A program made the translations under genes and the position numbers. Positions 7,042 to 38,519 of a DNA stretch of 38,831 nucleotides are shown one piece after another. Each line of letters begins with the position of its first letter. The stretch's first letter is position 1. This DNA is from Escherichia phage T7. Location of the stretch: the sequence record MZ375240.1. One strand, 5' to 3'. Under the pieces are notes generated by a model. The model ran no database searches and was not told where the DNA came from. It worked only from the letters and a program-made list of their open reading frames with translations.

Positions 7042-7064
7042 TTTTACGACTCACTAAAGGAGGT
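7042..7064 (+). promoter_or_regulatory. T7 promoter phi1.5 with altered upstream edge (TTT at -17..-15 where the reference has TAA)
   Basis: cTTTTACGACTCACTAAAGGAGG; the -14..+6 part matches phi1.5, the upstream part is fused to the gene 1.4 RBS. Confidence 0.75.
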
Positions 7065-7071
7065 ACACACC

Positions 7072-7161
7072 ATGATGTACTTAATGCCATTACTCATCGT
7101 CATTGTAGGATGCCTTGCGCTCCACTGTAGCGATGATGATATGCCAGATGGTCACGCTTAA
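7072..7161 (+). CDS. 1.5: Gene 1.5, small hydrophobic protein
   Basis: 29 codons MMYLMPLLIVIVGCLALHCSDDDMPDGHA; position matches the reference gene. Confidence 0.7.
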   Translation: MMYLMPLLIVIVGCLALHCSDDDMPDGHA

Positions 7162-7181
7162 TACGACTCACTAAAGGAGAC
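7159..7181 (+). promoter_or_regulatory. T7 promoter phi1.6
   Basis: TAATACGACTCACTAAAGGAGAC. Confidence 0.88.
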
Positions 7182-7186
7182 ACTAT

Positions 7187-7447
7187 ATGTTTCGACTTCA
7201 TTACAACAAAAGCGTTAAGAATTTCACGGTTCGCCGTGCTGACCGTTCAATCGTATGTGCGAGCGAGCGCCGAGCTAAGATACCTCTTATTGGTAACACA
7301 GTTCCTTTGGCACCGAGCGTCCACATCATTATCACCCGTGGTGACTTTGAGAAAGCAATAGACAAGAAACGTCCGGTTCTTAGTGTGGCAGTGACCCGCT
7401 TCCCGTTCGTCCGTCTGTTACTCAAACGAATCAAGGAGGTGTTCTGA
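7187..7447 (+). CDS. 1.6: Gene 1.6, function unknown
   Basis: ORF track 86 aa. Confidence 0.85.
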
Positions 7448-8029
7448 TGGGACTGTTAGATGGTGAAGCCTGGGAAAAAGAAAACCCGCCAGTACAAGCA
7501 ACTGGGTGTATAGCTTGCTTAGAGAAAGATGACCGTTATCCACACACCTGTAACAAAGGAGCTAACGATATGACCGAACGTGAACAAGAGATGATCATTA
7601 AGTTGATAGACAATAATGAAGGTCGCCCAGATGATTTGAATGGCTGCGGTATTCTCTGCTCCAATGTCCCTTGCCACCTCTGCCCCGCAAATAACGATCA
7701 AAAGATAACCTTAGGTGAAATCCGAGCGATGGACCCACGTAAACCACATCTGAATAAACCTGAGGTAACTCCTACAGATGACCAGCCTTCCGCTGAGACA
7801 ATCGAAGGTGTCACTAAGCCTTCCCACTACATGCTGTTTGACGACATTGAGGCTATCGAAGTGATTGCTCGTTCAATGACCGTTGAGCAGTTCAAGGGAT
7901 ACTGCTTCGGTAACATCTTAAAGTACAGACTACGTGCTGGTAAGAAGTCAGAGTTAGCGTACTTAGAGAAAGACCTAGCGAAAGCAGACTTCTATAAAGA
8001 ACTCTTTGAGAAACATAAGGATAAATGTT

Positions 8030-8037
<8 letters not shown>
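7447..8037 (+). CDS. 1.7: Gene 1.7, nucleotide (dGMP/dTMP) kinase
   Basis: ORF track 196 aa; ATG overlaps the gene 1.6 stop (TGATG). Confidence 0.9.
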
Positions 8038-8370
<333 letters not shown>

Positions 8371-8373
<3 letters not shown>

Positions 8374-8394
8374 TACGACTCACTATTAGGGAAG
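8371..8394 (+). promoter_or_regulatory. T7 promoter phi2.5
   Basis: TAATACGACTCACTATTAGGGAAGA. Confidence 0.85.
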
Positions 8395-8438
8395 ACTCCC
8401 TCTGAGAAACCAAACGAAACCTAAAGGAGATTAACATT

Positions 8439-9137
8439 ATGGCTAAGAAGATTTTCACCTCTGCGCTGGGTACCGCTGAACCTTACGCTTACATCGCCAA
8501 GCCGGACTACGGCAACGAAGAGCGTGGCTTTGGGAACCCTCGTGGTGTCTATAAAGTTGACCTGACTATTCCCAACAAAGACCCGCGCTGCCAGCGTATG
8601 GTCGATGAAATCGTGAAGTGTCACGAAGAGGCTTATGCTGCTGCCGTTGAGGAATACGAAGCTAATCCACCTGCTGTAGCTCGTGGTAAGAAACCGCTGA
8701 AACCGTATGAGGGTGACATGCCGTTCTTCGATAACGGTGACGGTACGACTACCTTTAAGTTCAAATGCTACGCGTCTTTCCAAGACAAGAAGACCAAAGA
8801 GACCAAGCACATCAATCTGGTTGTGGTTGACTCAAAAGGTAAGAAGATGGAAGACGTTCCGATTATCGGTGGTGGCTCTAAGCTGAAAGTTAAATATTCT
8901 CTGGTTCCATACAAGTGGAACACTGCTGTAGGTGCGAGCGTTAAGCTGCAACTGGAATCCGTGATGCTGGTCGAACTGGCTACCTTTGGTGGCGGTGAAG
9001 ACGATTGGGCTGACGAAGTTGAAGAGAACGGCTATGTTGCCTCTGGTTCTGCCAAAGCGAGCAAACCACGCGACGAAGAAAGCTGGGACGAAGACGACGA
9101 AGAGTCCGAGGAAGCAGACGAAGACGGAGACTTCTAA
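8439..9137 (+). CDS. 2.5: Gene 2.5, single-stranded DNA-binding protein
   Basis: ORF track 232 aa with acidic C-terminal tail ...EADEDGDF. Confidence 0.97.
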   Translation: MAKKIFTSALGTAEPYAYIAKPDYGNEERGFGNPRGVYKVDLTIPNKDPRCQRMVDEIVKCHEEAYAAAVEEYEANPPAVARGKKPLKPYEGDMPFFDNGDGTTTFKFKCYASFQDKKTKETKHINLVVVDSKGKKMEDVPIIGGGSKLKVKYSLVPYKWNTAVGASVKLQLESVMLVELATFGGGEDDWADEVEENGYVASGSAKASKPRDEESWDEDDEESEEADEDGDF

Positions 9138-9557
9138 GTGGAACTGCGGGAGAAAATCCTTGAGCGAATCAAGGTGACTTCCTCTGGGTGTTGGGAGTGG
9201 CAGGGCGCTACGAACAATAAAGGGTACGGGCAGGTGTGGTGCAGCAATACCGGAAAGGTTGTCTACTGTCATCGCGTAATGTCTAATGCTCCGAAAGGTT
9301 CTACCGTCCTGCACTCCTGTGATAATCCATTATGTTGTAACCCTGAACACCTATCCATAGGAACTCCAAAAGAGAACTCCACTGACATGGTAAATAAGGG
9401 TCGCTCACACAAGGGGTATAAACTTTCAGACGAAGACGTAATGGCAATCATGGAGTCCAGCGAGTCCAATGTATCCTTAGCTCGCACCTATGGTGTCTCC
9501 CAACAGACTATTTGTGATATACGCAAAGGGAGGCGACATGGCAGGTTACGGCGCTAA
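9138..9557 (+). CDS. 2.8: Gene 2.8, HNH endonuclease-like protein (paralog of gene 7.7)
   Basis: ORF track 139 aa, GTG start; CDNPLCCNPEHL and GTPKENS motifs shared with gp7.7. Confidence 0.85.
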   Translation: MELREKILERIKVTSSGCWEWQGATNNKGYGQVWCSNTGKVVYCHRVMSNAPKGSTVLHSCDNPLCCNPEHLSIGTPKENSTDMVNKGRSHKGYKLSDEDVMAIMESSESNVSLARTYGVSQQTICDIRKGRRHGRLRR

Positions 9558-9987
9558 AGGAATCCGAAAGGTTGGAGCGTTTCGCTCTGGCCTAGAGGAC
9601 AAGGTTTCAAAGCAGTTGGAATCAAAAGGTATTAAATTCGAGTATGAAGAGTGGAAAGTGCCTTATGTAATTCCGGCGAGCAATCACACTTACACTCCAG
9701 ACTTCTTACTTCCAAACGGTATATTCGTTGAGACAAAGGGTCTGTGGGAAAGCGATGATAGAAAGAAGCACTTATTAATTAGGGAGCAGCACCCCGAGCT
9801 AGACATCCGTATTGTCTTCTCAAGCTCACGTACTAAGTTATACAAAGGTTCTCCAACGTCTTATGGAGAGTTCTGCGAAAAGCATGGTATTAAGTTCGCT
9901 GATAAACTGATACCTGCTGAGTGGATAAAGGAACCCAAGAAGGAGGTCCCCTTTGATAGATTAAAAAGGAAAGGAGGAAAGAAATAA
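9538..9987 (+). CDS. 3: Gene 3, endonuclease I (Holliday junction resolvase)
   Basis: 149 aa from the ATG at 9538 inside ORF-track entry 9490..9987 (MAGYGAKGIRK...). Confidence 0.93.
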   Translation: MAGYGAKGIRKVGAFRSGLEDKVSKQLESKGIKFEYEEWKVPYVIPASNHTYTPDFLLPNGIFVETKGLWESDDRKKHLLIREQHPELDIRIVFSSSRTKLYKGSPTSYGEFCEKHGIKFADKLIPAEWIKEPKKEVPFDRLKRKGGKK

Positions 9988-10442
9988 TGGCTCGTGTACA
10001 GTTTAAACAACGTGAATCTACTGACGCAATCTTTGTTCACTGCTCGGCTACCAAGCCAAGTCAGAATGTTGGTGTCCGTGAGATTCGCCAGTGGCACAAA
10101 GAGCAGGGTTGGCTCGATGTGGGATACCACTTTATCATCAAGCGAGACGGTACTGTGGAGGCAGGACGAGATGAGATGGCTGTAGGCTCTCACGCTAAGG
10201 GTTACAACCACAACTCTATCGGCGTCTGCCTTGTTGGTGGTATCGACGATAAAGGTAAGTTCGACGCTAACTTTACGCCAGCCCAAATGCAATCCCTTCG
10301 CTCACTGCTTGTCACACTGCTGGCTAAGTACGAAGGCGCTGTGCTTCGCGCCCATCATGAGGTGGCGCCGAAGGCTTGCCCTTCGTTCGACCTTAAGCGT
10401 TGGTGGGAGAAGAACGAACTGGTCACTTCTGACCGTGGATAA
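9987..10442 (+). CDS. 3.5: Gene 3.5, lysozyme (N-acetylmuramoyl-L-alanine amidase) and T7 RNAP inhibitor
   Basis: ORF track 151 aa MARVQFKQRESTDAIFVHCSATK...; recognised as T7 lysozyme. Confidence 0.97.
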   Translation: MARVQFKQRESTDAIFVHCSATKPSQNVGVREIRQWHKEQGWLDVGYHFIIKRDGTVEAGRDEMAVGSHAKGYNHNSIGVCLVGGIDDKGKFDANFTPAQMQSLRSLLVTLLAKYEGAVLRAHHEVAPKACPSFDLKRWWEKNELVTSDRG

Positions 10443-10443
10443 T

Positions 10444-10466
10444 TAATTGAACTCACTAAAGGGAGA
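10444..10466 (+). promoter_or_regulatory. T7 promoter phi3.8
   Basis: TAATTGAACTCACTAAAGGGAGA. Confidence 0.8.
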
Positions 10467-10505
10467 CCACAGCGGTTTCCCTTTGTTCGCATTGGAGGTC
10501 AAATA

Positions 10506-12604
<2,099 letters not shown>

Positions 12605-12607
<3 letters not shown>

Positions 12608-12627
12608 TACGACTCACTAAAGGAGAC
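12605..12627 (+). promoter_or_regulatory. T7 promoter phi4.3
   Basis: TAATACGACTCACTAAAGGAGAC. Confidence 0.88.
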
Positions 12628-12666
12628 ACACCAAATTCTTTGAGTAATCAAACAGGAGAAACCATT

Positions 12667-12936
12667 ATGTCTAACGTAGCTGAAACTATCCGTCTATCCG
12701 ATACAGCTGACCAGTGGAACCGTCGAGTCCACATCAACGTTCGCAACGGTAAGGCGACTATGGTTTACCGCTGGAAGGACTCTAAGTCCTCTAAGAATCA
12801 CACTCAGCGTATGACGTTGACAGATGAGCAAGCACTGCGTCTGGTCAATGCGCTTACCAAAGCTGCCGTGACAGCAATTCATGAAGCTGGTCGCGTCAAT
12901 GAAGCTATGGCTATCCTCGACAAGATTGATAACTAA
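12667..12936 (+). CDS. 4.5: Gene 4.5, small protein reported to inhibit Lon protease
   Basis: 89 aa from the ATG at 12667 inside ORF-track entry 12640..12936 (MSNVAETIRLSDT...). Confidence 0.85.
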   Translation: MSNVAETIRLSDTADQWNRRVHINVRNGKATMVYRWKDSKSSKNHTQRMTLTDEQALRLVNALTKAAVTAIHEAGRVNEAMAILDKIDN

Positions 12937-12939
12937 GAG

Positions 12940-12980
12940 TGGTATCCTCAAGGTCGCCAAAGTGGTGGCCTTCATGAATA
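12940..12980 (+). promoter_or_regulatory. RNase III site R4.7
   Basis: cctcaaggtcgccaaagtggtggccttcatgaat hairpin motif. Confidence 0.7.
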
Positions 12981-13003
12981 CTATTCGACTCACTATAGGA
13001 GAT
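12981..13003 (+). promoter_or_regulatory. T7 promoter phi4.7
   Basis: CTATTCGACTCACTATAGGAGAT. Confidence 0.8.
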
Positions 13004-13009
13004 ATTACC

Positions 13010-13417
13010 ATGCGTGACCCTAAAGTTATCCAAGCAGAAATCGCTAAACTGGAAGCTGAACTGGAGGACGTTAAGTACCATGAAGCTAAGACTCGCTCCG
13101 CTGTTCACATCTTGAAGAACTTAGGCTGGACTTGGACAAGACAGACTGGCTGGAAGAAACCAGAAGTTACCAAGCTGAGTCATAAGGTGTTCGATAAGGA
13201 CACTATGACCCACATCAAGGCTGGTGATTGGGTTAAGGTTGACATGGGAGTTGTTGGTGGATACGGCTACGTCCGCTCAGTTAGTGGCAAATATGCACAA
13301 GTGTCATACATCACAGGTGTTACTCCACGCGGTGCAATCGTTGCCGATAAGACCAACATGATTCACACAGGTTTCTTGACAGTTGTTTCATATGAAGAGA
13401 TTGTTAAGTCACGATAA
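13010..13417 (+). CDS. 4.7: Gene 4.7, function unknown
   Basis: 135 aa from the ATG at 13010 (MRDPKVIQAEI...) inside ORF-track entry 12881..13417, directly after the phi4.7 RBS. Confidence 0.85.
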   Translation: MRDPKVIQAEIAKLEAELEDVKYHEAKTRSAVHILKNLGWTWTRQTGWKKPEVTKLSHKVFDKDTMTHIKAGDWVKVDMGVVGGYGYVRSVSGKYAQVSYITGVTPRGAIVADKTNMIHTGFLTVVSYEEIVKSR

Positions 13418-13435
13418 TCAATAGGAGAAATCAAT

Positions 13436-15550
13436 ATGATCGTTTCTGACATCGAAGCTAACGCCCTCTTAGAGAGCGTCACTAAGTTCCACTGCGGGGT
13501 TATCTACGACTACTCCACCGCTGAGTACGTAAGCTACCGTCCGAGTGACTTCGGTGCGTATCTGGATGCGCTGGAAGCCGAGGTTGCACGAGGCGGTCTT
13601 ATTGTGTTCCACAACGGTCACAAGTATGACGTTCCTGCATTGACCAAACTGGCAAAGTTGCAATTGAACCGAGAGTTCCACCTTCCTCGTGAGAACTGTA
13701 TTGACACCCTTGTGTTGTCACGTTTGATTCATTCCAACCTCAAGGACACCGATATGGGTCTTCTGCGTTCCGGCAAGTTGCCCGGAAAACGCTTTGGGTC
13801 TCACGCTTTGGAGGCGTGGGGTTATCGCTTAGGCGAGATGAAGGGTGAATACAAAGACGACTTTAAGCGTATGCTTGAAGAGCAGGGTGAAGAATACGTT
13901 GACGGAATGGAGTGGTGGAACTTCAACGAAGAGATGATGGACTATAACGTTCAGGACGTTGTGGTAACTAAAGCTCTCCTTGAGAAGCTACTCTCTGACA
14001 AACATTACTTCCCTCCTGAGATTGACTTTACGGACGTAGGATACACTACGTTCTGGTCAGAATCCCTTGAGGCCGTTGACATTGAACATCGTGCTGCATG
14101 GCTGCTCGCTAAACAAGAGCGCAACGGGTTCCCGTTTGACACAAAAGCAATCGAAGAGTTGTACGTAGAGTTAGCTGCTCGCCGCTCTGAGTTGCTCCGT
14201 AAATTGACCGAAACGTTCGGCTCGTGGTATCAGCCTAAAGGTGGCACTGAGATGTTCTGCCATCCGCGAACAGGTAAGCCACTACCTAAATACCCTCGCA
14301 TTAAGACACCTAAAGTTGGTGGTATCTTTAAGAAGCCTAAGAACAAGGCACAGCGAGAAGGCCGTGAGCCTTGCGAACTTGATACCCGCGAGTACGTTGC
14401 TGGTGCTCCTTACACCCCAGTTGAACATGTTGTGTTTAACCCTTCGTCTCGTGACCACATTCAGAAGAAACTCCAAGAGGCTGGGTGGGTCCCGACCAAG
14501 TACACCGATAAGGGTGCTCCTGTGGTGGACGATGAGGTACTCGAAGGAGTACGTGTAGATGACCCTGAGAAGCAAGCCGCTATCGACCTCATTAAAGAGT
14601 ACTTGATGATTCAGAAGCGAATCGGACAGTCTGCTGAGGGAGACAAAGCATGGCTTCGTTATGTTGCTGAGGATGGTAAGATTCATGGTTCTGTTAACCC
14701 TAATGGAGCAGTTACGGGTCGTGCGACCCATGCGTTCCCAAACCTTGCGCAAATTCCGGGTGTACGTTCTCCTTATGGAGAGCAGTGTCGCGCTGCTTTT
14801 GGCGCTGAGCACCATTTGGATGGGATAACTGGTAAGCCTTGGGTTCAGGCTGGCATCGACGCATCCGGTCTTGAGCTACGCTGCTTGGCTCACTTCATGG
14901 CTCGCTTTGATAACGGCGAGTACGCTCACGAGATTCTTAACGGCGACATCCACACTAAGAACCAGATAGCTGCTGAACTACCTACCCGAGATAACGCTAA
15001 GACGTTCATCTATGGGTTCCTCTATGGTGCTGGTGATGAGAAGATTGGACAGATTGTTGGTGCTGGTAAAGAGCGCGGTAAGGAACTCAAGAAGAAATTC
15101 CTTGAGAACACCCCCGCGATTGCAGCACTCCGCGAGTCTATCCAACAGACACTTGTCGAGTCCTCTCAATGGGTAGCTGGTGAGCAACAAGTCAAGTGGA
15201 AACGCCGCTGGATTAAAGGTCTGGATGGTCGTAAGGTACACGTTCGTAGTCCTCACGCTGCCTTGAATACCCTACTGCAATCTGCTGGTGCTCTCATCTG
15301 CAAACTGTGGATTATCAAGACCGAAGAGATGCTCGTAGAGAAAGGCTTGAAGCATGGCTGGGATGGGGACTTTGCGTACATGGCATGGGTACATGATGAA
15401 ATCCAAGTAGGCTGCCGTACCGAAGAGATTGCTCAGGTGGTCATTGAGACCGCACAAGAAGCGATGCGCTGGGTTGGAGACCACTGGAACTTCCGGTGTC
15501 TTCTGGATACCGAAGGTAAGATGGGTCCTAATTGGGCGATTTGCCACTGA
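13436..15550 (+). CDS. 5: Gene 5, DNA polymerase (family A, 3'-5' exonuclease, thioredoxin-binding)
   Basis: ORF track 704 aa [13 protein letters not shown]...; recognised as T7 DNA polymerase. Confidence 0.98.
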
Positions 15551-16442: not shown

Positions 16443-16600
16443 TGTCTCGTGACCTTGTGACTATTCCACGCGATGTGTGGAACGATATACAGGGCTACAT
16501 CGACTCTCTGGAACGTGAGAACGATAGCCTTAAGAATCAACTAATGGAAGCTGACGAATACGTAGCGGAACTAGAGGAGAAACTTAATGGCACTTCTTGA
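16442..16600 (+). CDS. 5.9: Gene 5.9, RecBCD inhibitor
   Basis: 52 codons MSRDLVTIPRDVWNDIQGYIDSLERENDSLKNQLMEADEYVAELEEKLNGTS, acidic. Confidence 0.85.
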   Translation: MSRDLVTIPRDVWNDIQGYIDSLERENDSLKNQLMEADEYVAELEEKLNGTS

Positions 16601-17489
16601 CCTTAAACAATTCTATGAGTTACGTGAAGGCTGCGACGACAAGGGTATCCTTGTGATGGACGGCGACTGGCTGGTCTTCCAAGCTATGAGTGCTGCTGAG
16701 TTTGATGCCTCTTGGGAGGAAGAGATTTGGCACCGATGCTGTGACCACGCTAAGGCCCGTCAGATTCTTGAGGATTCCATTAAGTCCTACGAGACCCGTA
16801 AGAAGGCTTGGGCAGGTGCTCCAATTGTCCTTGCGTTCACCGATAGTGTTAACTGGCGTAAAGAACTGGTTGACCCGAACTATAAGGCTAACCGTAAGGC
16901 CGTGAAGAAACCTGTAGGGTACTTTGAGTTCCTTGATGCTCTCTTTGAGCGCGAAGAGTTCTATTGCATCCGTGAGCCTATGCTTGAGGGTGATGACGTT
17001 ATGGGAGTTATTGCTTCCAATCCGTCTGCCTTCGGTGCTCGTAAGGCTGTAATCATCTCTTGCGATAAGGACTTTAAGACCATCCCTAACTGTGACTTCC
17101 TGTGGTGTACCACTGGTAACATCCTGACTCAGACCGAAGAGTCCGCTGACTGGTGGCACCTCTTCCAGACCATCAAGGGTGACATCACTGATGGTTACTC
17201 AGGGATTGCTGGATGGGGTGATACCGCCGAGGACTTCTTGAATAACCCGTTCATAACCGAGCCTAAAACGTCTGTGCTTAAGTCCGGTAAGAACAAAGGC
17301 CAAGAGGTTACTAAATGGGTTAAACGCGACCCTGAGCCTCATGAGACGCTTTGGGACTGCATTAAGTCCATTGGCGCGAAGGCTGGTATGACCGAAGAGG
17401 ATATTATCAAGCAGGGCCAAATGGCTCGAATCCTACGGTTCAACGAGTACAACTTTATTGACAAGGAGATTTACCTGTGGAGACCGTAG
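16587..17489 (+). CDS. 6: Gene 6, 5'-3' exonuclease
   Basis: ORF track 300 aa. Confidence 0.95.
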   Translation: MALLDLKQFYELREGCDDKGILVMDGDWLVFQAMSAAEFDASWEEEIWHRCCDHAKARQILEDSIKSYETRKKAWAGAPIVLAFTDSVNWRKELVDPNYKANRKAVKKPVGYFEFLDALFEREEFYCIREPMLEGDDVMGVIASNPSAFGARKAVIISCDKDFKTIPNCDFLWCTTGNILTQTEESADWWHLFQTIKGDITDGYSGIAGWGDTAEDFLNNPFITEPKTSVLKSGKNKGQEVTKWVKRDPEPHETLWDCIKSIGAKAGMTEEDIIKQGQMARILRFNEYNFIDKEIYLWRP

Positions 17490-29677: not shown

Positions 29678-32600
29678 ATGGATAAGTACGATAAGAACGT
29701 ACCAAGTGATTATGATGGTCTGTTCCAAAAGGCTGCTGATGCCAACGGGGTCTCTTATGACCTTTTACGTAAAGTCGCTTGGACAGAATCACGATTTGTG
29801 CCTACAGCAAAATCTAAGACTGGACCATTAGGCATGATGCAATTTACCAAGGCAACCGCTAAGGCCCTCGGTCTGCGAGTTACCGATGGTCCAGACGACG
29901 ACCGACTGAACCCTGAGTTAGCTATTAATGCTGCCGCTAAGCAACTTGCAGGTCTGGTAGGGAAGTTTGATGGCGATGAACTCAAAGCTGCCCTTGCGTA
30001 CAACCAAGGCGAGGGACGCTTGGGTAATCCACAACTTGAGGCGTACTCTAAGGGAGACTTCGCATCAATCTCTGAGGAGGGACGTAACTACATGCGTAAC
30101 CTTCTGGATGTTGCTAAGTCACCTATGGCTGGACAGTTGGAAACTTTTGGTGGCATAACCCCAAAGGGTAAAGGCATTCCGGCTGAGGTAGGATTGGCTG
30201 GAATTGGTCACAAGCAGAAAGTAACACAGGAACTTCCTGAGTCCACAAGTTTTGACGTTAAGGGTATCGAACAGGAGGCTACGGCGAAACCATTCGCCAA
30301 GGACTTTTGGGAGACCCACGGAGAAACACTTGACGAGTACAACAGTCGTTCAACCTTCTTCGGATTCAAAAATGCTGCCGAAGCTGAACTCTCCAACTCA
30401 GTCGCTGGGATGGCTTTCCGTGCTGGTCGTCTCGATAATGGTTTTGATGTGTTTAAAGACACCATTACGCCGACTCGCTGGAACTCTCACATCTGGACTC
30501 CAGAGGAGTTAGAGAAGATTCGAACAGAGGTTAAGAACCCTGCGTACATCAACGTTGTAACTGGTGGTTCCCCTGAGAACCTCGATGACCTCATTAAATT
30601 GGCTAACGAGAACTTTGAGAATGACTCCCGCGCTGCCGAGGCTGGCCTAGGTGCCAAACTGAGTGCTGGTATTATTGGTGCTGGTGTGGACCCGCTTAGC
30701 TATGTTCCTATGGTCGGTGTCACTGGTAAGGGCTTTAAGTTAATCAATAAGGCTCTTGTAGTTGGTGCCGAAAGTGCTGCTCTGAACGTTGCATCCGAAG
30801 GTCTCCGTACCTCCGTAGCTGGTGGTGACGCAGACTATGCGGGTGCTGCCTTAGGTGGCTTTGTGTTTGGCGCAGGCATGTCTGCAATCAGTGACGCTGT
30901 AGCTGCTGGACTGAAACGCAGTAAACCAGAAGCTGAGTTCGACAATGAGTTCATCGGTCCTATGATGCGATTGGAAGCCCGTGAGACAGCACGAAACGCC
31001 AACTCTGCGGACCTCTCTCGGATGAACACTGAGAACATGAAGTTTGAAGGTGAACATAATGGTGTCCCTTATGAGGACTTACCAACAGAGAGAGGTGCCG
31101 TGGTGTTACATGATGGCTCCGTTCTAAGTGCAAGCAACCCAATCAACCCTAAGACTCTAAAAGAGTTCTCCGAGGTTGACCCTGAGAAGGCTGCGCGAGG
31201 AATCAAACTGGCTGGGTTCACCGAGATTGGCTTGAAGACCTTGGGGTCTGACGATGCTGACATCCGTAGAGTGGCTATCGACCTCGTTCGCTCTCCTACT
31301 GGTATGCAGTCTGGTGCCTCAGGTAAGTTCGGTGCAACAGCTTCTGACATCCATGAGAGACTTCATGGTACTGACCAGCGTACTTATAATGACTTGTACA
31401 AAGCAATGTCTGACGCTATGAAAGACCCTGAGTTCTCTACTGGCGGCGCTAAGATGTCCCGTGAAGAAACTCGATACACTATCTACCGTAGAGCGGCACT
31501 AGCTATTGAGCGTCCAGAACTACAGAAGGCACTCACTCCGTCTGAGAGAATCGTTATGGACATCATTAAGCGTCACTTTGACACCAAGCGTGAACTTATG
31601 GAAAACCCAGCAATATTCGGTAACACAAAGGCTGTGAGTATCTTCCCTGAGAGTCGCCACAAAGGTACTTACGTTCCTCACGTATATGACCGTCATGCCA
31701 AGGCGCTGATGATTCAACGCTACGGTGCCGAAGGTTTGCAGGAAGGGATTGCCCGCTCATGGATGAACAGCTACGTCTCCAGACCTGAGGTCAAGGCCAG
31801 AGTCGATGAGATGCTTAAGGAATTACACGGGGTGAAGGAAGTAACACCAGAGATGGTAGAGAAGTACGCTATGGATAAGGCTTATGGTATCTCCCACTCA
31901 GACCAGTTCACCAACAGTTCCATAATAGAAGAGAACATTGAGGGCTTAGTAGGTATCGAGAATAACTCATTCCTTGAGGCACGTAACTTGTTTGATTCGG
32001 ACCTATCCATCACTATGCCAGACGGACAGCAATTCTCAGTGAATGACCTAAGGGACTTCGATATGTTCCGCATCATGCCAGCGTATGACCGCTGTGTCAA
32101 TAGTGACATCGCCATCATGGGGTCTACTGGTAAAACCACTAAGGAACTTAAGGATGAGATTTTGGCTCTCAAAGCGAAAGCTGAGGGAGACGGTAAGAAG
32201 ACTGGCGAGGTACATGCTTTAATGGATACCGTTAAGATTCTTACTGGTCGTGCTAGACGCAATCAGGACACTGTGTGGGAAACCTCACTGCGTGCCATCA
32301 ATGACCTAGGGTTCTTCGCTAAGAACGCCTACATGGGTGCTCAGAACATTACGGAGATTGCTGGGATGATTGTCACTGGTAACGTTCGTGCTCTAGGGCA
32401 TGGTATCCCAATTCTGCGTGATACACTCTACAAGTCTAAACCAGTTTCAGCTAAGGAACTCAAGGAACTCCATGCGTCTCTGTTCGGGAAGGAGGTGGAC
32501 CAGTTGATTCGGCCTAAACGTGCTGACATTGTGCAGCGCCTAAGGGAAGCAACTGATACCGGACCTGCCGTGGCGAACATCGTAGGGACCTTGAAGTATT

Positions 32601-38471: not shown

Positions 38472-38519
38472 ATGTTCCGCTTATTGTTGAACCTACTGCG
38501 GCATAGAGTCAAGTCCTAA
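38472..38519 (+). pseudogene. 19.5: Gene 19.5 truncated to 15 codons
   Basis: ATG at 38472 after agggaggagactc RBS; MFRLLLNLLRHRVKS then stop, whereas the gene encodes about 49 aa in reference T7. Confidence 0.7.

Follow-up and report, generated by a model that had tools for sequence, protein, structure and literature searches.

Early-region deletion mutants of bacteriophage T7, formed between short direct repeats, were reportedly described by Studier and colleagues. Classical T7 deletions use longer repeats than the one at the locus described below, and they are not known to be tied to start codons. A different set of T7 deletions comes from CiPGr, the experiment of Yuan et al. (NAR 2022; PMC9825161), where E. 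coli MG1655 with SpCas9 and a library of pooled plasmids served as the host for passaging T7. The cassettes of that system, 200 nt in length, each pair a 20-nt spacer, directed at a non-essential gene, with a repair template made of two 50-bp arms; the 'cassette-gene' templates were intended to remove whole genes, and the sequenced T7 isolates came from that library. Plaques of large (L) and small (S) size were sampled at intervals of 10 transfers up to transfer 300. The undesigned large-fragment losses given in PMC9825161 are gp0.3-0.6, gp4.3-4.7 and gp19.5 only, and 4.3 is absent from its known non-essential genes that were missed. Deliberate removal of 4.3 by homologous recombination has also been described for the PhageMaP gene 4.3 deletion (PMC11482910) and for the DCHR delta-gp4.3-4.7 phage (PMC12664982). 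As described, these knockouts are set apart from the present one by their methods and junctions, which involve a lox scar or cassette insertion, or loss of the whole 1.02-kb 4.3-4.7 block.

The stretch of DNA analysed here (the window, 38,831 bp) is a complete linear T7 genome that ends in a copy of its own first 160 nt, resembling the terminal repeat of T7. Compared with reference T7 NC_001604 (39,937 bp; its positions are given below as ref), the window aligns in five collinear blocks with greater than 99.9% identity, and 1,106 bases are missing in four deletions:

Ref ~1342-1904, window junction 1341: 563-bp deletion in genes 0.4-0.6, with an exact repeat of 1 nt and an imperfect repeat of 9/12
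Ref 7608-7763, between window positions 7044 and 7045: 156-bp deletion of exactly the gene 1.4 ORF, ATG to TAA, with no repeat
Ref 13352-13549 (or shifted by up to 3 nt), window 12631-12633: 198-bp deletion in gene 4.3, with the 3-nt repeat CCA
Ref 39420/29-39608/17, window 38503-38511: 189-bp deletion in the 19.5 region, with the 9-nt repeat ATAGAGTCA

The 563-bp deletion takes most of 0.4 and the whole of 0.5 and 0.6A/B, and its ends are unrelated to ORF ends. This early-region loss fits the 'undesigned gp0.3-0.6' category of Yuan et al., for which sister clones carry alleles of 676, 699 and 1480 bp. The 189-bp deletion, between two copies of ATAGAGTCA, has eliminated the greater part of gene 19.5 together with a further 70-80 bp downstream. 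Sisters that retain the 19.5 region instead have clustered point changes at ref 39572-39596, which resemble escape mutations in a Cas9 protospacer situated outside the ORF annotated as 19.5. The gene 1.4 deletion (window 7042-7064) also clips the first three bases of promoter phi1.5, which now reads TTTTACGACTCACTAAAGGAG, because the TAA stop of 1.4 occupies -17 to -15 of that promoter. Every examined clone from transfer 30 on has this allele, and the clipped phi1.5 is therefore tolerated.

Besides the deletions, the window has 13 point differences from the reference. At position 405 (ref 405), an A-to-G change at +1 of phiOL converts TATAAGGAGAG to TATAGGGAGAG, nearer the strong class III consensus. 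The change is common to most clones from transfer 40 onward, and its spread through the clones suggests selection during passaging. Nonsynonymous changes are present in RNA polymerase (Q184R, window 3158; H854R, 5168), primase/helicase (M441I, 12168), gp5.5 (K27E, 16012), gp7.3 (R91H, 18889), gp11 (A153E, 23768), gp16 (R806C, 32093; G809S, 32102; A1193V, 33255) and the tail fibre gp17 (K214E, 34346). The changes at ref 24685, 34172 and 35263 were found in all 11 of the 11 clones compared, and are probably differences in the starting T7 stock of that laboratory. Private to the window are the changes at ref 5731, 12887 and 16929 and a synonymous one at 30553, and the window is without 26243 A>G and 34067 A>G.

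An earlier note, made from the window's sequence alone, had proposed that gene 4.3 is deleted from its start codon and that promoter phi4.3 now stands directly upstream of gene 4.5. Whole-window BLAST against NC_001604, a deterministic rather than a statistical comparison, confirmed that 198 bp of gene 4.3 are absent and that the 70-codon gene is not present. At this site the two collinear blocks are window 7045-12633, equivalent to ref 7764-13352, and window 12631-38511, equivalent to ref 13548-39428. The features of the locus are as follows:

12605 to 12627, forward strand: promoter phi4.3 (-17 to +6, TAATACGACTCACTAAAGGAGAC), found by pattern match; equal to ref 13324-13346 with no SNPs, at a 719-nt offset, with +1 at 12622
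12620 to 12625, forward strand: orphan Shine-Dalgarno of gene 4.3 (AAGGAG); the reference has its ATG 7 nt on, where the window reads AAA
12622 to 12666, forward strand: new 45-nt untranslated leader of the phi4.3 transcript, from +1 to the base preceding the gene 4.5 ATG
12631 to 12633, forward strand: junction of the 4.3 deletion (CCA); the ATG-anchored break lies between 12632 and 12633
12633 to 12647, forward strand: gene 4.3 remnant AAA TTC TTT GAG TAA (K F F E stop), equal to ref 13550-13564 and untranslatable as such
12654 to 12659, forward strand: gene 4.5 Shine-Dalgarno (AGGAGA), same as the reference
12667 to 12936, forward strand: gene 4.5, 89 aa plus stop, intact and identical to the reference CDS 13584-13853; an ORF at 12640 to 12936 is in frame with the ATG at 12667

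In the reference annotation, phi4.3 has its +1 at 13341, gene 4.3 occupies 13352-13564 and gene 4.5 occupies 13584-13853. The reference reads ...ACACACC ATG TTC AAA ... CTT TCC AAA TTC TTT GAG TAA at this site. The window reads ...TAATACGACTCACTAAAGGAGACACACC joined to AAATTCTTTGAGTAATCAAACAGGAGAAACCATTATG across the junction; after ...ACACACC it continues AAATTCTTTGAGTAA (12633-12647), so that of the 70 amino acids of reference gp4.3 only the last four codons and the stop are kept, as the earlier note had read them. The two blocks overlap by 3 nt at the junction, CCA at window 12631-12633, and copies of CCA are found in the reference at both ends of the deleted segment, at ref 13350-13352 (just before and over the 4.3 ATG) and ref 13548-13550. 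The microhomology that had been raised as a possibility is therefore real, and with this 3-nt ambiguity the deletion has four equivalent placements, from ref 13350-13547 through 13353-13550. One of them, ref 13352-13549, begins exactly at the A of the ATG and extends to codon 66, in agreement with the suggested anchoring; the gene 1.4 deletion is the other precisely anchored deletion that had been alluded to. In the ATG-anchored placement the deletion starts at +12 of the phi4.3 transcript and leaves +1 to +11 unchanged. No point differences from the reference were found in the phi4.3 promoter, in the residual 15 nt of 4.3 or in gene 4.5, and the promoter and its ribosome-binding site are intact, as claimed. 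The distance from phi4.3 to 4.5 falls from 243 nt in the reference to 45 nt in the window; the short untranslated leader that the earlier note had placed before gene 4.5 was thus correctly described, and the 45-bp interval is not that of wild-type T7.

We then compared the junction with other phage genomes, using a 42-nt probe centred on it, which the wild type cannot match under the 28-nt word requirement of megablast. The exact 42-nt junction was present in 28 records, all of them mutant T7 clones (the MZ375243-MZ375294 series and OL964740), and in no natural phage record of the phage collection searched; wild-type T7 records keep the full gene 4.3. A 1.5-kb query around the site gave a one-piece match to MZ375243, 'Mutant Escherichia phage T7 clone T7_60L', and matched most T7 records in two pieces. 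Clones seen by name were T7_30S, 40L, 50L, 50S, 60L, 60S, 70L, 200S, 270S, 290S, 300L, 300S, 5t1 and 5t2. All four deletion alleles of the window, and many of its SNPs, are common to the T7_nL/nS records. The window is a genome-reduced T7 from the CiPGr series of Yuan et al., the link being made by method and by clone names, which fit the L and S plaque sampling of that study, rather than by a printed accession. From the accession order 30L, 30S, 40L, [MZ375240], 50L, 50S, the clone is probably T7_40S. The 4.3 deletion is therefore already known, being public in 28 GenBank records, and is not a natural variant.

Among these relatives, T7_60L (MZ375243), T7_60S (MZ375244), T7_200S (MZ375272) and T7_300L (MZ375291) have the same 4.3 junction as the window, and the 1.4 deletion, the 563-bp early allele, the 189-bp 19.5 allele and many SNPs are likewise held in common by the window and the CiPGr clones. 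They differ from it in their combination of alleles: the window has the 563-bp, 1.4, 4.3 and 189-bp deletions and is without the 3.8 deletion, and no record identical to it was found in the searched collection. SNP and deletion patterns are mosaic among the clones. For example, the window has ref 161 in common with 60S/200S/300L/300S, ref 19806 in common with 30S/60L/70L and ref 33010 in common with 300L/300S, and such patterns indicate that co-infecting phages often recombined in the population under passage. When the SNP haplotypes were used to ask whether the 4.3 allele arose by recurrent editing or had a single origin, the mosaic clones did not discriminate between the two.

Deletions were catalogued against the reference in 16 sister genomes and fell into two classes. 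The single-gene deletions were as follows:

Ref 7608-7763: gene 1.4, ATG to stop, microhomology 0
Ref 8193-8728: gene 1.7, internal, microhomology 4 nt
Ref 11254-11545: gene 3.8, internal with the gene 4A start spared, microhomology 0
Ref 13352-13549: gene 4.3, ATG to 15 nt short of the end, microhomology 3 nt
Ref 13927-14334: gene 4.7, ATG to stop, microhomology 0
Ref 16483-16820: gene 5.3, ATG to 19 nt short of the ORF end, microhomology 0
Ref 19848-20216: gene 7.7, ATG to 24 nt short of the end, microhomology 0

Each of these was represented by one allele in every clone examined. For the 4.3-only deletion this was one allele in 29 genomes (the window and the 28 records), with no alternative 4.3-only allele among the 16 clones analysed. 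The multi-gene or non-ORF deletions had several alleles per region and boundaries unrelated to ORFs. In the early region, alleles of 563, 676, 699 and 1480 bp had repeats of 1, 4, 0 and 13 nt, respectively; in the 19.5 region, alleles of 189 and 356 bp were found. A third example is a ~1021-bp 4.3-4.7 deletion in T7_270S (MZ375286) and T7_290S (MZ375290), which runs from ref ~13277 (in 4.2, upstream of phi4.3) to ~14298 (in 4.7), is flanked by the imperfect 13-nt repeat ACAGG(A/T)TTCTTGA, and takes phi4.3, 4.3, 4.5, phi4.7 and most of 4.7. Both this deletion and that of the window remove 4.3 in one and the same population under selection by Cas9; the larger one has ends that bear no relation to ORF starts, and phi4.3 and 4.5 are lost with it. 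As these late clones lack 4.5, that gene is also dispensable under these conditions. The multi-allele class covers exactly the three undesigned regions of Yuan et al. (gp0.3-0.6, gp4.3-4.7 and gp19.5; PMC9825161).

Several members of the single-gene class leave part of the ORF behind: 3' stubs of 15 nt (4.3), 19 nt (5.3) and 24 nt (7.7) are kept, and the 3.8 deletion also leaves part of its ORF. Given these remnants, the whole-gene removal stated in PMC9825161 is loose wording. No rule for the 3' boundaries emerged from the comparisons made. The number of nucleotides kept upstream of the next ATG was 18, 19, 23, 27, 30 and 34 (4.7, 3.8, 7.7, 1.4, 5.3 and 4.3, respectively), with no constant; neither the first nor the last SpCas9 site coincided with the deletion boundaries, and no PAM rule reproduced the seven 3' boundaries; deletion lengths of 156, 198, 292, 338, 369, 408 and 536 followed no in-frame rule.

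Taken against this background, the 4.3 deletion was likely directed by a repair template in the CiPGr experiment of Yuan et al. In such an event, Cas9 would have cut within gene 4.3 of T7 passaged on cells with SpCas9 and the library, and recombination with the template, through putative arms at ref 13302-13351 and 13550-13599, would have removed ref 13352-13549. The edited phage would have escaped further cutting, every Cas9 target in 4.3 being destroyed; by our count, 18 of the 18 SpCas9 protospacer-plus-PAM (NGG) sites inside the gene are removed or broken by the deletion. The phage has lost gp4.3 and kept phi4.3 and the 4.3 ribosome-binding site, which now lead into the 45-nt untranslated leader, and gene 4.5, which retains its own ribosome-binding site and ATG, would still be transcribed from phi4.3 and all upstream class II promoters. 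The CCA at both ends would be a chance coincidence. We infer a repair oligonucleotide having exactly these arms, and 4.5 expression that is essentially unaffected. The deletion is read as template-directed because its sisters in 1.4, 4.7, 5.3 and 7.7 start at the ATG and have one allele each, and escape deletions ignore gene boundaries. Moreover, the sole 4.3 allele is most simply that of the template, because slippage on 3 nt should compete very poorly with a 50-bp template that every targeting cell contains. The designed event suggested in the earlier note is accordingly supported by the published Cas9 and template series and by four ATG-anchored sisters, and is short of proof, the CCA leaving room for a spontaneous escape.

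That spontaneous route, which we regard as unlikely, would have the two CCA copies joined after a Cas9 cut or by replication slippage with the loss of 198 bp; the allele would then have spread by selection and phage-phage recombination, and its coincidence with the ATG would be due to chance. The deletion is indeed flanked by the exact 3-nt repeat, with an imperfect 6/8 extension (CCATGTTC / CCAAATTC); undesigned deletions with 0-13 nt of homology arose in the same population, and the mosaic haplotypes mean that one allele could reach many backgrounds by recombination. Like deletions of the classical Studier type, that of 4.3 has lost non-essential DNA and has a short direct repeat at its junction, but the window's 19.5 deletion, with its 9-nt repeat, is a much closer fit to that type. 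Junction ambiguity of 3 nt or more is found in only 5.5% of random T7 deletions, and at least 3 nt of microhomology in 2 of the 7 putative template deletions (4.3 with 3 nt and 1.7 with 4 nt), somewhat above expectation. Further evidence that counts against design is that the loss does not cover the whole ORF, unlike the design in PMC9825161: 4.3 was not removed 'entirely', its last 15 nt including the stop being retained. The distance from stop to next ATG is 20 nt for 4.3, much like the 19 nt for 4.7, yet the 4.7 ORF was fully removed, and the 15-nt stub of 4.3 therefore needs an unexplained design choice. Against spontaneous joining, only 2 of the 28 possible deletions with at least 3 nt of microhomology in the plausible range can be anchored at the ATG, and longer repeats of 6 and 5 nt that were able to delete 4.3 exist and were not used. 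In addition, four sisters with zero microhomology share the ATG anchor, two of them with a 3' stub. Ends independent of genes and several alleles would be expected of spontaneous escapes, and the 4.3 deletion has neither. Had there been a 4.3 template with other boundaries, its much more efficient product should also have appeared, whereas the window and 28 records hold a single allele, and PMC9825161 names no 4.3-only undesigned loss. The two coincidences, CCA by chance under design and the ATG anchor by chance under slippage, are similar in size, with rough likelihoods about even (5.5% chance microhomology and 2/28, respectively).

It is considerably less probable still that a whole-ORF 4.3 template allele was counter-selected and that a rare CCA-mediated deletion won, the retained 15 nt, or the 34 nt before the 4.5 ATG, being a cis element for proper 4.5 expression. 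A minor variant is that the orphan 4.3 ribosome-binding site may drive a weak start at the in-frame TTG at 12640, extending gp4.5 by 9 residues. It is extremely improbable that engineering played no part and that the deletion is a variant natural to T7 or an error of sequencing or assembly. In favour of such an origin there is only the general tendency of T7 in culture to lose non-essential DNA; against it, independent assemblies of 28 clones gave this one junction, and the exact ATG-to-stop loss of 1.4 with zero microhomology is unexplained by spontaneous events. We rejected this origin as no non-engineered record in the searched collection has the junction. Whether by template or by spontaneous joining, the 4.3 allele was made and selected in the CiPGr experiment.

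We also assessed what the deletion means for expression of the neighbouring gene. The window clone cannot make gp4.3. The new leader has a predicted folding energy of -14.8 kcal/mol (z = 0.19 versus shuffled sequences), and the wild-type context gave z = 0.30; neither is more stable than shuffled sequence, so no claim of altered 4.5 translation is made. In the predicted lowest-energy structure, UUCUUU of the 4.3 stub pairs with the 4.5 Shine-Dalgarno (GGAGAA), a pairing that is equally possible in the wild type. A scan of the junction found no new sigma-70 promoter or terminator, and no ATG, GTG or TTG lies at a workable spacing after the orphan 4.3 Shine-Dalgarno. The nearest start candidate, the TTG at 12640, is 14 nt away and in frame with 4.5, and it is present in the wild type too. 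Class II transcripts from upstream T7 promoters are reported to read through the 4.3-4.5 region (Dunn and Studier 1983), and 4.5 therefore never depended on phi4.3 alone.

Where the PhageMaP preprint (PMC11482910) mentions gp4.5, the protein is cited as a Lon inhibitor countering the sanaTA toxin-antitoxin system, which agrees with the anti-Lon role that the earlier note had assigned to it. The same preprint proposes gp4.3 and gp4.5 as counters to RADAR, with ~70% lower plating when either is deleted. Given these proposed anti-defence roles, the window clone should suffer a slight handicap on such hosts only. ORF-anchored deletions without microhomology (1.4) beside repeat-mediated ones (19.5), as in this genome, are a signature of Cas9-plus-template editing by which engineering can be recognised. 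A published experiment in minimising the phage genome yielded the 4.3 deletion as a by-product, and this deletion again shows that 4.3 is dispensable on E. coli K-12 in rich medium. The allele is a ready-made clean 4.3 knockout in which phi4.3 and 4.5 are intact, and it could serve in tests of the proposed anti-defence roles of gp4.3 and gp4.5.
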